Source: Minisyncoccia bacterium (GTDB lineage Bacteria; Patescibacteriota; Minisyncoccia; Phycocordibacterales; UBA9973). From it: a stretch of DNA of 64,000 nt. Made by a program: the position numbers and the translations under genes. The first letter of the stretch is position 1. Every line of letters starts with the position of its first letter. The notes below the pieces were generated by a model, which saw only the letters and a list, made by a program, of their open reading frames with translations, did no database searches and was not told the DNA's origin. The DNA is taken from assembly GCA_038249055.1 (NCBI GenBank), contig JBBRWS010000003.1, forward strand, positions 24,374 through 88,373, given 5' to 3'. This document shows positions 53,570 to 64,000 of this stretch, in pieces.

Positions 53570-54568
53570 TTAATACATTTTCAGTGAAAAAGGATAAGGA
53601 ATATAATTTTCAATATATTCTTCTAAAAAATCTGCCTTTTCTGGAGAATAAATATAATCCCTAGAATTATTAGATATATTATAATTTATATCCTTAACCA
53701 TCTTTCCATCAACTATAATCCCCGATAGAACATCAATTTTTTTACGGTGCAGAAAAAGACACAAATTTTTAGTTATTGGGAAAAATAGTTCAGTATGTGG
53801 GCCACCTAAACTTTTATAATCATAAGGAAAAGCAACCTTATCTTCTGGGACAAAGTAAACAGCTGGTGCATCGGATGTGATAAAATAATTAGGATCTTCA
53901 CATTGTATAATTTGAATAGTCATATCTGAGAGCACATTACTATACATAGTTAAATTTGTAAAAATATGCTTAATAAACAGATTTCTTGGTAAACTTACTT
54001 CAAAATTTCCATCCTCCATCATTTTTATATATTTTTTTGTTGCGCCGTCTGCTTGCTCTTCAGTCATATCTGGAAATTTCTTCTTAAGGTGATCTTTCAT
54101 TTCAGTAATTCTATTACTATTAGAAGATTCAGCCCAATTTTGAGCCTGAGCACTAGCTTTATATATTTCTTCCATCTCAATTTTACTATGCAAAGTTCTA
54201 CTAAGCATTGAGGCAATAAGGGTAATAATGTATTCTCTGTATTTATCAAATATCAACGTAGCATCAAAAAAATTATTTTCTACAAAAGATACGAAATCTT
54301 TATATTTGGATTCAAACTCTTCGCTGAAGAAATCTTCAAAGATGTTTTTATCTTCAAATTCATCGTCCTGGGGAATATATAAATTATTTTTTACGCCAAT
54401 GATATTTAATCCATCCTCTCCCTGAACTACCAGCACTCTATCAGATTTTTCAATGTTATTCTCGAAAAACTTTTTACCTTTTTTGTAAACAAATAATTGT
54501 TCCTCCTTATTCCAAAATTTTTTAAGATATACTTTGGGGATATAATGGTTACGGCTTTTAATTTCCAT
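53570..54568 (-). CDS. DUF4238 family protein
   Basis: N-terminal NHYIPKVYLKKF matches the HYxPxFYLxxF signature of DUF4238. Confidence 0.55.
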   Translation of the reverse strand: MEIKSRNHYIPKVYLKKFWNKEEQLFVYKKGKKFFENNIEKSDRVLVVQGEDGLNIIGVKNNLYIPQDDEFEDKNIFEDFFSEEFESKYKDFVSFVENNFFDATLIFDKYREYIITLIASMLSRTLHSKIEMEEIYKASAQAQNWAESSNSNRITEMKDHLKKKFPDMTEEQADGATKKYIKMMEDGNFEVSLPRNLFIKHIFTNLTMYSNVLSDMTIQIIQCEDPNYFITSDAPAVYFVPEDKVAFPYDYKSLGGPHTELFFPITKNLCLFLHRKKIDVLSGIIVDGKMVKDINYNISNNSRDYIYSPEKADFLEEYIENYIPYPFSLKMY

Positions 54569-54662
54569 ATTTATATTTTAACATTTTTATACCATACTAC
54601 ATATGACTATAATTTTTTAGGATAATTATATTTTATCATTTGAAAATGTTGCGAGTTTTTAT

Positions 54663-55205
54663 TTATTTTAGATTAAGATATTTATCAAACCTATCTTTTT
54701 CAGTTGGGAATTTAGATGTACCTAACTCATATAATTTTTGTGTAAATCCATACATACCCATTTTATTTAACATAAACATCATAACCATAATTGGTTCACA
54801 GCTTTCTGATAAATCTATAGATTTTTTCATATATTCCATAGCTCTGTTTTCGTCACCTAATAAAAATAAGGTCCTCCCTATTTTATCTAAAACAGCTCCA
54901 TTATTTGGTTCAAGTTGTAATGAAACCCAATAATCACTAAAAGCTTTTTCATAATCATTAATCTCACAATAAGCATCTCCCCTTAATACCCATATATAAA
55001 ATAAAGAATCGTCTAATTTTAAACAATCCGAAAAAGAATCAATAGATTCTTTATACAGTTCTAAGTGTAACAATGAGCTTGCTTTGTAAGATAAGGCTGT
55101 AAAATTATTTACATTCTCTTTTAAAATTTTTGCAGATAAAGATAAGCAATCTCCATACTTTTCATTATTATATAATTCTCTTATTTGTTGTATTTCTTCA
55201 TCCAT
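54663..55205 (-). CDS. Tetratricopeptide repeat protein
   Basis: Four TPR-like 34-aa units (W-LG-Y-A-F-P pattern). Confidence 0.7.
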   Translation of the reverse strand: MDEEIQQIRELYNNEKYGDCLSLSAKILKENVNNFTALSYKASSLLHLELYKESIDSFSDCLKLDDSLFYIWVLRGDAYCEINDYEKAFSDYWVSLQLEPNNGAVLDKIGRTLFLLGDENRAMEYMKKSIDLSESCEPIMVMMFMLNKMGMYGFTQKLYELGTSKFPTEKDRFDKYLNLK

Positions 55206-55269
55206 AATTATTTGTAAGAATAAATATCTACTTGATTACTTCCATTTTTACAAAAACTGTATATAAATA

Positions 55270-62700: not shown

Positions 62701-62875
62701 GAAGTGCTGGTAATAAATATTTCTTAAGAACTACTTCACCTTGGTTTTCACGTCCAAGCAAAAAATCATCTTCATCTTTATAAGCATTGATATGACATTT
62801 ATCATCACCCCATATTTCCTTTATAAGTTTAATAACTGTCTGTTCAACTAAATTGTCTTCATTAAATGGGTTCAT
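59744..62875 (-). CDS. hsdR: Type I restriction enzyme R subunit
   Basis: 1043 aa; HsdR N-terminal nuclease region, Walker A TQGSGKSYSM, DEAH box ITDEAHRTQ, helicase C motifs. Confidence 0.9.
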   Translation of the reverse strand: MNPFNEDNLVEQTVIKLIKEIWGDDKCHINAYKDEDDFLLGRENQGEVVLKKYLLPALQKINPTLSIDALTQAVDIITRDRSNLSLIKANQEIYKLLQSGVNVNVQLENGDMGTERVQFFDFEKAEDNHFLMVSQLWVVGEMYTRRPDVVVFVNGIPLILLELKASHISLVDAHRDNIRDYKDTIPKLFWYNLGIIISNGIENKFGSLTAPYEFFNEWKKTGDEKDKPKTDLATILSGICNKTRLLDIFENFILFDESGSDVKKIVPRYFQYLGVNLAFDNAIKRKELAGKLGVFWHTQGSGKSYSMVWLSQKVLRKLVGNFTFVIVTDRNQLDGQAYKNFVNVGVIHESEVHADSIANLKDLLAGDHRQIFTTIQKFQDISGPISEREEIIVITDEAHRTQYDSMALNMRKALPKASFIGFTGTPLMADGEAETVKTFGNYVSIYNFSQSVTDGATVPLYYENRVPRLNNVNENLEEQLGQLMERYDLNEDEEEKIEREYSNFYEIITREDRLDTIARDIVEHYVGRGYDGKAMVVSIDKKTTFRMYDKVKKEWGRYIAKLRMDLSRATDEREKEKILLKLEQHENVDMAVMVSLGDNQNEIADMAEFEIDVKPIRERIIHGNLEDEFKKADSNLRIVFVCAMWITGFDVPNLSTLYLDKPLKNHTLMQTIARANRVADEGKKNGIIVDYIGVFKNIERALALYATNGADEDEIIKSKDELLNDLKKSIKTTKEFLSAEQIDIDVLLNAPSEEKILLLEKYANTIIGKLEEKKKFLNLASDLQNAYRSVLPDPSAEDYYKEVTAVRVLASRIRDVGSQSIDVSQVKKDLEDLLDKSIQAGQYVIPQHKKIKDLSILDAEALQTFFAGLDNKNLQVESMTTELDQKITEMVKKNKKRAKFMDRLVNLLQEYNSGAHDIDQLFESLIILAKDLTVEEQRTVKENLSEEELAIFDLLVKENLNPDEVASIKGATHELLTNLEPLLVPHWRDFETNRAGVKIAISDLLFTKLPEPTYTEIECELKGFEIYNFVYEHFQDKKMMAYA

Positions 62876-62882
62876 AAATAAG

Positions 62883-64000
62883 TTATAGCTCCATTTTATT
62901 CAAATTAATTTCTGTTTCTTGTATTTGTTTTATTTTATCAAACATATTTACCACAATTTTTTTAAAACTATTAGCAGTATCTGAATCTGGAACAATAATT
63001 TTCATAGTTTTTAAAAATTTGAAATGCCTTGCGTATTCATTATTTTGTAATCCTGAGTTAAGTAAAGATACATAAAAAAGTTCTTGTGGCATTCGTAATA
63101 AGTCATTACTTAATATAAGTTGAGTTCCATCTGCCCCACAAGCAAATGGAAAATTACAATACTTAAAGCATCTTGTATGGTCACCAAATAAAATATATTC
63201 TTTATTATATACAGTAGAATCTTCATTCGTATACCCTCCAATAAACGCCTTTCCTTGATCAATAATCGGGAATTTACCAATATCTAGATATTCGTCTGTT
63301 TTAATTTTCCTTTTCCTCTTGACCTGTGTTAAAAGATTTTTAACTTGTTTAACTTCCCAACCAGTAGGAATATCACCAAATTTTGATTTACTATCAATAA
63401 ATTTAATTTTTTCATTCCCAGGAAATTTAAAATGAACAAACCAGTCTATATAAATTATATTTATCATTTTCTCTATCATTGAAGATGAACTAAATTCAAC
63501 ATTATTCCATTTAATATTTTTGGAAATTTGAGTTAATCTATTTGAAATTTCTATATCAATTTGATTATTTATTAATGTTTGCTTTTCTAAAAATGAATTT
63601 AAATTCATCAATTTTTCTTCAAGTGAAGTTTTGTTAAGAACAATCTCAGAATTATCAATATATTGCCTAGGGTTTAGGGAGTAATCACATTCTTTTATTT
63701 CATCAATACTTACAACTCTGCAACGGCCTCTAATATCAGAATACTTTTTATATCCTTGTTCACAACGATAGCTGCGGACAATTCCCACTATCTCTTGTAT
63801 TTGATCATCAGTCCAAAATTTTTTAACTCTTTCACCAGGAATTGAAGTGAATATATCGCTTACATTTAAAAATAATATTTCTTTTTCTCTTGGAGTTCCT
63901 TTTTTTGATTTATCAAAAAACCAAAGAGTTGTTGAAAGAGTCACATTGATAAACATATTTCCACCAACTACAATTATTACGTCAATTCCTCCAGATTCAA
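62883..64000 (-). CDS. hsdMS: Type I R-M methyltransferase C-terminal region continuing in-frame into a single-TRD specificity (HsdS-like) module; 5' end beyond window
   Basis: In-frame translation upstream of the annotated Met continues ...ESGGIDVIIVVGGN-MFINVTLSTTLWFFDKSKKG...SLNPRQYI (HsdM C-terminal motifs) with no stop, then coiled coil, IDWFVHFKFPG (HsdS conserved region) and IPTGWEVKQVKNL TRD; 8 bp upstream of hsdR. Confidence 0.55.
   Translation of the reverse strand, partial: ESGGIDVIIVVGGNMFINVTLSTTLWFFDKSKKGTPREKEILFLNVSDIFTSIPGERVKKFWTDDQIQEIVGIVRSYRCEQGYKKYSDIRGRCRVVSIDEIKECDYSLNPRQYIDNSEIVLNKTSLEEKLMNLNSFLEKQTLINNQIDIEISNRLTQISKNIKWNNVEFSSSSMIEKMINIIYIDWFVHFKFPGNEKIKFIDSKSKFGDIPTGWEVKQVKNLLTQVKRKRKIKTDEYLDIGKFPIIDQGKAFIGGYTNEDSTVYNKEYILFGDHTRCFKYCNFPFACGADGTQLILSNDLLRMPQELFYVSLLNSGLQNNEYARHFKFLKTMKIIVPDSDTANSFKKIVVNMFDKIKQIQETEINLNKMEL

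Follow-up and report, generated by a model that had tools for sequence, protein, structure and literature searches.

The window analyzed here is a 64,000-nucleotide (nt) stretch of contig JBBRWS010000003.1 from a Minisyncoccia bacterium, and its last part, from position 53570 to 64000, forms a single co-directional block on the minus strand of the open reading frame (ORF) map. In order of transcription the block consists of an hsdM-hsdS fusion, hsdR, gene I, a LOOT RNA (Rfam RF03000), and genes H, s56, G, F, E, D, C, B, and A (Table 1), the RNA leader being housed in the 273-nt gap between I and H. An earlier note on this DNA had read the block as a probable defense island comprising a structured leader, five small hypothetical or membrane proteins, and a type I restriction-modification (R-M) system; its gene content, coordinates, and minus-strand co-direction were all reproduced by the ORF map, and the small ORFs come to six with the addition of s56 between H and G. 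That the region is a mobile defense island is very probable and, in kind, ordinary, and the notable part of it is the operon led by LOOT.

Table 1. Features of the block at 53570 to 64000, in order of transcription (window coordinates; aa, amino acids; TM, transmembrane).
Feature	Position	Strand	Description or evidence
hsdM-hsdS fusion, 3' part	62883-64000, running off the window	-	End of N6_Mtase domain (Pfam) and single HsdS target recognition domain (TRD)
hsdR, type I restriction subunit, 1043 aa	59744-62875	-	PADLOC REase_I 1.1e-170; Pfam HSDR_N, ResIII, T1RH-like_C
I, 113-aa orphan, 5 nt 3' of hsdR	59397-59738	-	Sub-threshold DUF5655 match, E value 0.013
Predicted promoter of the LOOT transcript	59323-59337	-	GATATAAT box at 59337-59330, TATAAT at 59335-59330; inferred start near 59323
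LOOT RNA (Rfam RF03000)	59184-59320	-	62.4 bits against a gathering score of 46.4
Conserved 3' extension of the leader, candidate expression platform	59124-59183	-	89-95% identity to the window copy in eight loci
b' (UGUGUAGCC)	59176-59168	-	Leader 3' extension
U-run	59166-59162	-	Leader 3' extension
b2 (GCUAC)	59161-59157	-	Leader 3' extension
a2 (CCCACGCGA)	59136-59128	-	Ends 4 nt before the AUG of H at 59123
H, 144 aa, first gene behind LOOT	58689-59123	-	Two N-terminal TM helices and soluble C-terminal domain
s56, 56-aa soluble ORF, uncertain gene status	58517-58687	-	Gene call on Logan contig
G, 127 aa, polytopic membrane protein	58092-58475	-	2-3 TM segments (hydropathy scan)
F, 199 aa	57473-58072	-	Soluble N-terminal half and ~4 TM helices in C-terminal half
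E, 193 aa, soluble, all-alpha	56886-57467	-	No TM segment in hydropathy scan
D, 143 aa	56413-56844	-	N-terminal membrane anchor and 4-Cys domain, probably extracytoplasmic
C, 373 aa, VcaM4I-type HNH nuclease	55270-56391	-	HNH_2 Pfam 3e-11; PADLOC HNH 5.9e-28
B, 180-aa TPR protein	54663-55205	-	Pfam TPR_2, TPR_8, TPR_1
A, 332-aa DUF4238 protein	53570-54568	-	Pfam DUF4238 E value 9.7e-27, 94.5 bits

LOOT is the sole Rfam match in the whole window. The covariance-model scan aligned it over the full model (positions 1-121, E value 4e-10), and this match of 62.4 bits together with a leader fold z-score of -8.1 against shuffled sequence bears out the structured leader that had been noticed from the letters alone. 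The RNA folds into four hairpins, with GAAA loops on P3 and P4 and, in P1, a CCUAAC/UAUGG internal loop that may, as we assume, be akin to the classical 11-nt GAAA-tetraloop receptor; P2 is formed by the pairing of 59275-59264 with 59240-59229. Across ten distinct leaders, 95.7% of the cells in the LOOT helices are paired, against 31-39% in slid controls, and nine pairs, mainly in P1 and P3, are changed on both sides, so the fold is supported by co-variation. The same ten leaders are near-invariant in alignment from the TATAAT box to the start codon, the box being invariant in six loci and preceded by TG in three. The core from P2 to the ATG keeps 89-95% identity to the window copy, compared with 67-84% nucleotide and 56-84% protein identity for the E gene in the same loci, and on these alignments we take the RNA to be under strong constraint.

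In the literature, LOOT is listed among the 224 candidate RNAs of a 2017 survey (Weinberg et al. 2017, PMC5737381), figures in the Rfam 14 paper (PMC7779021) as an RNA family drawn from metagenomes, is typed by Rfam as a small RNA (sRNA), and is cited as an example of dense co-variation. The literature searched offered catalogue-type mentions only, with no function or gene association for LOOT. The window RNA resembles the published motif (RF03000; PMC5737381) in its full-model match, four hairpins, CCUAA/AUGG internal loop, and two GAAA loops; it differs in that conservation runs on for another ~60 nt, as far as the start codon, and in that its gene context is reproducible.

This context emerged from related loci, found either via contigs encoding homologues of E or in a metagenome scan with an exact 20-mer from P4. 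E was the bait for eight loci and is also present in three loci of the subfamily that came from the RNA 20-mer, and the informative loci are L001, L002, L003/4, L005, L006, L009, L017, L024, and L026. A 17-mer from P2/P3, scanned against a genome collection, gave two matches, neither of them LOOT, which is consistent with chance. In every locus with enough upstream sequence, LOOT, as identified with Rfam, heads an operon of small genes, and in this subfamily the operon ends in E. L001 (also L031) is a Logan contig identical to the window region that extends past the window end. L002 carries a tRNA-Asn, a homologous serine-recombinase backbone, an NgoPII-type type II R-M system, an S-adenosylmethionine (SAM) riboswitch, and a 121-aa gene, and then LOOT, an H-like gene, a gene for a 96-aa membrane protein, and E. 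L003/L004 have a tyrosine integrase and a 265-aa gene, followed by LOOT, a D-like gene (76 aa), a 59-aa TM protein, a 96-aa protein, E, a type III R-M system, a 165-aa gene, and a second integrase; L024, a complete element of ~12.5 kb in the L003 family that ends at a tRNA, has the same arrangement with an H homologue added. LOOT is followed by H, G, and E both in L017 and in L005, where an integrase fragment and a 266-aa gene accompany the operon and two orphans of 543 and 231 aa come after E. In L006, which has a 567-aa divergent gene, and in L009-12, where the 121-aa gene recurs (L009), the order is LOOT, a 56-aa TM protein, a 95/96-aa protein, and E, with an 86% identical copy of C behind E in L009-12. 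Finally, L026 pairs a 129-aa divergent helix-turn-helix (HTH) gene with a LOOT operon that contains a homologue of D.

More distant loci were recovered with the 20-mer as well. L016 (178-2158), whose host probably belongs to a different phylum, holds LOOT, a short hairpin, and U6, and a GmrSD type IV gene lies 96 nt downstream with a clear AGGAG. In L019 (LOOT at 9433-9554, minus strand) and L028, LOOT heads an operon that encodes two membrane proteins of 67 and 142 aa, a HerA/DUF87 ATPase with a membrane anchor, a helicase (PIF1), and a nuclease (DUF559), after which ordinary host genes follow, and in L020 LOOT is divergent from a serine recombinase. E is absent from L016 and L019.

Altogether, LOOT, H, G, E, D, and C are all that the window shares with these loci. 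Conservation extends to the RNA, to E, and to one small polytopic membrane protein encoded immediately before E or nearly so, which is either G or a member of the 96-aa family, the two being unrelated; H, D, the TM proteins of 56-67 aa, and secreted proteins of 274-325 aa come and go. Hence the five-gene cassette that the earlier note had proposed as a unit recurs in the sense that LOOT, H, G, E, and D are found again together, and falls away as a fixed set, the operon being mosaic. These comparisons place all the small ORFs of the window, other than F and s56, in a recurring pool of genes associated with LOOT. Most variable of all are the restriction systems, which occupy defined slots on either side of the LOOT operon: type I in the window, NgoPII-type II in L002, type III in L003 and L024, an HNH gene in L009-12, and, in the distant loci, GmrSD in L016 and HerA/PIF1/DUF559 in L019. 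The slot between E and the conserved 165-aa gene holds the type III system in L003 and L024.

Several observations on these islands stand on their own. In L005 the same slot (3472-5828) is filled by the 543-aa and 231-aa orphans, which have no Pfam or PADLOC match and are a candidate for an unknown defense system. The SAM riboswitch of L002 (8521-8627, 56.9 bits) lies between the NgoPII-type C5 DNA methyltransferase and the 121-aa orphan that precedes LOOT, and the 121-aa gene before LOOT in L009 is 97% identical to the L002 copy. In the tyrosine-integrase islands, small proteins with an N-terminal HTH matching Terminase_2 flank the LOOT operon (L003 10003-10428; L024 3008-3397 and 12192-12617, in LOOT-oriented coordinates); the likeness to Terminase_2 is limited to that HTH, and the proteins may be excision or regulatory factors.

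Among the proteins of the cassette, the hydropathy scan agrees with the earlier description of polytopic or soluble-plus-TM small proteins for H, G, and F, with D carrying a single N-terminal anchor and E soluble, and s56 likewise shows no TM segment. Scans of D to H against Pfam, PADLOC, PHROGs, and NCBIfam gave no significant match, in keeping with the absence of recognizable domains pointed out before; the best sub-significant PADLOC match is that of D to PD-T4-6 (E value 0.006), over the TM segment. At corresponding positions behind LOOT, H, G, E, and D have homologues of 32-87% identity in independent metagenomes. Those of H are found in L002, L005, L017, and L024 at 52-65% identity, and H amounts to 5 clusters among 5.8 billion. 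G has homologues of 75-84% identity directly upstream of E in L005 and L017, its position being taken by the unrelated 96-aa membrane protein in six other loci. Of the 5.8 billion clusters, 10 contain homologues of E; when 1.84 billion representatives were searched exhaustively with a profile, nothing was added beyond four strong matches, the weak matches held no useful Pfam domains, and a PDB profile search with E was empty. The D homologue inside the LOOT operon of L026 is 32.5% identical (E value 6e-13), and the first gene of L003 resembles the N-terminal part of D. Among the related loci, F is confined to this one, and no homologue of s56 was found in PHROGs, NCBIfam, or the related loci; s56 overlaps the stop codon of H and has a GC content above that of its surroundings. 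Gene I has no PDB relative and no homologue in the related loci.

Several other identities for these genes were considered and rejected. That F or G is a diverged member of the 96-aa membrane family is unsupported (hhalign probability below 1%), and the 174-aa GTG-start form of H is an artefact that reads through and overlaps the RNA, the ATG at 59123 being backed by alignment with the other loci. The earlier note had named two findings that would speak against an anti-phage cassette, namely, conserved housekeeping genes with fixed synteny and prophage structural genes. The former is ruled out by the extreme rarity of E and H and by flanks that are not syntenic between loci; the latter, along with prophage lysis genes, is ruled out by PHROGs, which gave no significant match, by five scans of IMG/VR contigs, which held none of E, H, G, or the RNA subfamily, and by the phage and plasmid records searched, in which the leader had no match. 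An integron cassette array is rejected as well, because the spacing of the small genes on the ORF map, from overlap up to 41 nt, leaves no room for attC sites.

The arrangement of the leader suggests how LOOT could act on these genes. LOOT is always co-oriented with the genes downstream, and nowhere before the ATG does the conservation break off; between the 3' end of the Rfam match and the ATG lie 59-64 nt in ten loci, although the first gene differs and may be H-like, D-like (76 aa), a secreted protein of 274-325 aa, or a TM protein of 56-67 aa. The segment a2 (CCCACGCGA) just before the AUG repeats the 5' arm of P2 (a) and is complementary to its 3' arm (a'), and the alternative a':a2 helix is fully paired (100%) in each of the ten leaders. 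In L020 the three segments co-vary, with G to A in the P2 5' arm, C to U in the 3' arm, and G to A in the pre-AUG copy, and in L019 they are shortened together, the helix-end GGG/CCC becoming GG/CC in all three. This copying of the P2 5' arm ahead of the AUG, together with its co-variation with the P2 3' arm, suggests a cis-acting switch. Forcing the a':a2 helix costs 4-9 kcal/mol above the minimum free energy fold (-69 to -81 kcal/mol). Moreover, a second competing pair involves the tip of P2, where GGCUACAUA (b) is complementary to UGUGUAGCC (b'); 3' of the latter come the U-run and then GCUAC (b2), which can form a local hairpin with UGUGUAGCC. In L016 the counterparts are GGUCUUCC and GGGAGACC, followed by U6, which differ in sequence and are complementary still. 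No strong intrinsic terminator was detected between LOOT and H in the subfamily and no terminator-like site inside the cassette.

The way in which translation seems to start in this genome adds to the case. A Shine-Dalgarno (SD)-like motif precedes 1 of 47 genes in the window, and at many window genes a TGnTATAAT box ends 6-10 nt before the ATG (for example upstream of 14593-15135, 15199-17706, 24047-24613, 46279-46731, and 47291-48514), suggesting that the mRNAs of this genome, with its 28% GC, are as a rule leaderless. If so, a structured leader of 200 nt would be exceptional here and, with essentially no SD sites in the genome, the accessibility of the start region should decide translation. 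We thus regard LOOT as probably the cis-acting leader of this operon, and there is fair support for the competing helix being able to occlude the start of the first gene.

In the model that we propose, the block would be the cargo side of a mobile defense island carried by a serine recombinase, and the LOOT operon would be a separate unit behind the type I R-M system, transcribed from its own predicted promoter and containing four small membrane proteins (H, G, F, and D) and two soluble ones (s56 and E), and then C, B, and A. LOOT in this subfamily would not stand alone as a small RNA but would form the operon's folded 5' leader. Pairing of the P2 3' arm with the P2 5' arm would leave the start region of the first gene open, and pairing of the same 3' arm with the arm copy 4 nt before the AUG would occlude it, an occlusion that would make an effective off-switch; the second competing helix pair, around the U-run, may add transcription attenuation. 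The operon would then be a tightly gated, membrane-acting phage-exclusion or abortive-infection module traveling with restriction systems that are swapped between islands. As a whole, this account of recombinase-borne island cargo with a LOOT-gated operon and an anti-phage module is the best explanation we can offer, and we put it forward tentatively, at somewhat short of even chances. The anti-phage function of the small-protein module, drawn from its gene neighborhood, is for its own part a possibility that we would rather doubt than assert.

Several points weigh against this account. The sample of loci is biased, each having been reached through homologues of E or the P4 20-mer, so that the diversity of LOOT is under-sampled. 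PADLOC models and known abortive-infection families gave no match with any of the cassette proteins scanned (H, G, F, E, and D), and F and s56 stand without homologues in the related loci. The co-variation of the switch helix comes down to a single substitution event and a single indel in a set of 10 leaders that are closely related, and the b:b' pair is invariant in the subfamily, with the complementarity in L016 as its only support. Rfam classes LOOT as an sRNA, and the L016 motif is followed by a U-run while the next gene has an SD of its own. Finally, LOOT and E are conserved and the R-M systems are variable, a pattern by which the module could serve the element itself and not defense.

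This last point leads to the alternative that survives best, namely, that the operon behind LOOT serves the mobile element as a core function, with the restriction systems as cargo around it; maintenance or addiction, exclusion of sister elements at entry, control of excision, or an interaction with either a helper phage or a conjugative element may each be the function concerned. LOOT, the polytopic membrane protein (96-aa family or G), and E are kept despite differing types of recombinase and R-M, and this contrast of conserved and variable parts fits such a role at least as well as it fits defense. The exchangeable contents between E and the conserved 165-aa gene in L003, L024, and L005, the few other non-defense genes that L024 has for element functions, and the flanking small HTH proteins that resemble the N terminus of a small terminase subunit point the same way. 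Yet beyond E and one membrane protein the content of the operon is itself mosaic, which would be unusual for a core machine, L016 and L019 lack E and have LOOT directly before nuclease or helicase genes, and the domain scans detected no replication, transfer, or packaging domains. On balance, we judge a core element function unlikely, though with a fair amount speaking for it.

A second alternative holds that LOOT is itself the functional RNA, acting in trans as a small RNA or forming a ribonucleoprotein (RNP) with E and/or the small membrane proteins, in the manner of the OLE RNA and its membrane protein OapA. Its primary sequence is conserved far beyond the needs of its helices (89-95% identity), the P1 loop, which we presume to be receptor-like, and the GAAA loops imply a compact tertiary fold, a U-run stands at the same position after the motif in all loci, the L016 RNA looks free-standing, and the Rfam type is sRNA. 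However, conservation runs unbroken to the start codon at a fixed spacing, P2 co-varies with the copy of its arm before the AUG, the subfamily lacks a strong intrinsic terminator between LOOT and H, and L016 and L019 have LOOT without E; we hold this alternative to be improbable. That the small ORFs are incidental, unrelated or mis-called, and lie beside LOOT and the R-M system by chance could draw on F and s56 having no homologues, on stop-free stretches being not rare at 28% GC, and on the lack of domains in Pfam, PADLOC, PHROGs, and NCBIfam, but it is already disproved for the most part by LOOT turning up again with H, G, E, and D in eight or more distinct contigs; the tight gene spacing (overlap to 41 nt) and LOOT being the only Rfam match in 64 kb also count against it, and it has next to no probability left.

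Coming back to the LOOT-gated defense module, a bolder form of it, which we rate as a long shot, would make LOOT the sensor RNA of mobile-element immunity, either as a riboswitch-like switch that responds to a signal linked to infection or stress by releasing the translation of membrane-disrupting effectors or as the core of a membrane RNP with E and the small membrane proteins; if true, this defense module would be defined by a structured RNA and not by a protein. Short of that, LOOT gains a reproducible gene context, an operon of small membrane proteins on integrase-bearing, restriction-swapping islands, as well as a conserved protein partner, E, and a hypothesis of competing helices, including one at the start region, that mutations can test. 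Were the operon anti-phage, it would be a defense system recognizable by its RNA, and PADLOC-type tools are built on proteins without RNA models. Were it to serve the element instead, it would supply the backbone that defines a group of small mobile islands without counterpart in the phage, plasmid, and viral records searched. In addition, the islands mark a cargo slot where known R-M systems give way to unknown genes, and thereby a route to further defense candidates.

A functional likeness is to riboswitches and other cis-acting leaders that occlude the start, which share the co-oriented upstream folded domain and a mutually exclusive helix at the start region, here a predicted one. Also as in such leaders, the LOOT fold may be combined with two kinds of downstream element, one that occludes the start in this locus and one in L016 in which a helix is followed by a U-run. 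Where riboswitches regulate metabolic genes, LOOT precedes heterogeneous genes of mobile elements, and the trigger could equally be a protein or phage factor. Another parallel is the OLE RNA, a highly conserved structured RNA encoded directly upstream of OapA, a small polytopic membrane protein; OLE is ~600 nt long and is chromosomal in extremophilic Firmicutes, and we know of no relation between OLE and LOOT in sequence or structure. As for the islands, the P2/P4 hotspots (Rousset et al., bioRxiv 10.1101/2021.01.21.427644) and the phage-inducible chromosomal islands (PICIs) are alike in being small, tRNA-adjacent integrase elements with exchangeable defense slots, and a DUF4238 gene is present both in the P2 hotspot and here. 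Unlike those elements, the present ones showed no phage or satellite hallmark genes and no viral-contig matches, and the P2/P4 and PICI backbones are unrelated to LOOT, the small membrane proteins, E, and the 219-266-aa divergent gene.

The view of the region as a defense island, advanced in the earlier note, is upheld by the intact motifs of the type I R-M system, by a DUF4238 family with a validated member, and by a serine recombinase on the same contig. Beyond the window end, L001 completes the HsdM-S fusion and continues with three small divergent genes and the 566-aa serine recombinase. In L002 the homologous recombinase backbone abuts the tRNA-Asn, and the L024 element has two tyrosine integrases and adjoins its tRNA. 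A search for attL/attR with the 3' end of the L002 tRNA-Asn found no second copy in L002 or the window, and the distal island boundary was not located within the window.

The full HsdM-S fusion is 739 aa long (L001:2366-4585), with HsdM_N and N6_Mtase domains (Pfam) and the motifs DPACGSGG and NPPF, and HsdR has PD..ELK (D148), GSGKS, DEAH, and QTIARANR; with these motifs intact, the system looks functional. TIGR00497 matches HsdM at 101 bits, below the equivalog cutoff of 242.75. A separate hsdS gene is lacking; instead, the last 238 aa of HsdM resemble the first TRD of EcoR124II HsdS (residues 31-171, E value 1.7e-7), so that a single TRD is fused to the HsdM C terminus. The signature motifs of HsdR and HsdM and the TRD are thus those of type I systems, which usually have a separate HsdS with two TRDs, whereas here one TRD and the conserved helices are fused to HsdM; two fusion proteins would then be needed to supply two TRDs, and a symmetric target is predicted.

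The C-terminal domain of C is homologous to the HNH domain of VcaM4I (E value 9.7e-39), a modification-dependent enzyme (6YEX; PMC7897488), and C thus shares the HNH catalytic domain of the VcaM4I/TagI family (PMC7897488); a modification sensor domain of the PUA superfamily (EVE/SRA), looked for in C, was not found. Its N-terminal domain had been taken for novel, which does not hold, as more than 2,281 protein clusters from several phyla share the full-length 373-aa architecture, some members with an added EVE domain. This N-terminal domain is putatively helical and DNA-glycosylase-like, and C a putative type IV modification-dependent restriction enzyme; a reasonable reading of the sequence is a glycosylase-fold sensor of modified bases joined to an HNH nuclease. 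Relatives of C that are 68-71% identical occur without LOOT or E in other defense-type neighborhoods (a KAP NTPase; an integrase, a ParB-methyltransferase, and MmeI), which argues for C being an independent cargo gene. The product of A matches Pfam DUF4238 over profile positions 1-279 of 281 at 94.5 bits, the cutoff being 27, and the PADLOC DUF4238-Pers model weakly (6.4e-5); a member of the DUF4238 family protects E. coli against T7 (bioRxiv 10.1101/2021.01.21.427644). Elsewhere in the window, C-terminal type A sorting domains of the type IX secretion system (T9SS), which taken alone hint at a host of the Bacteroidota/FCB lineage, end two paralogous proteins of ~455 aa encoded at 27357-28718 and 28953-30335.

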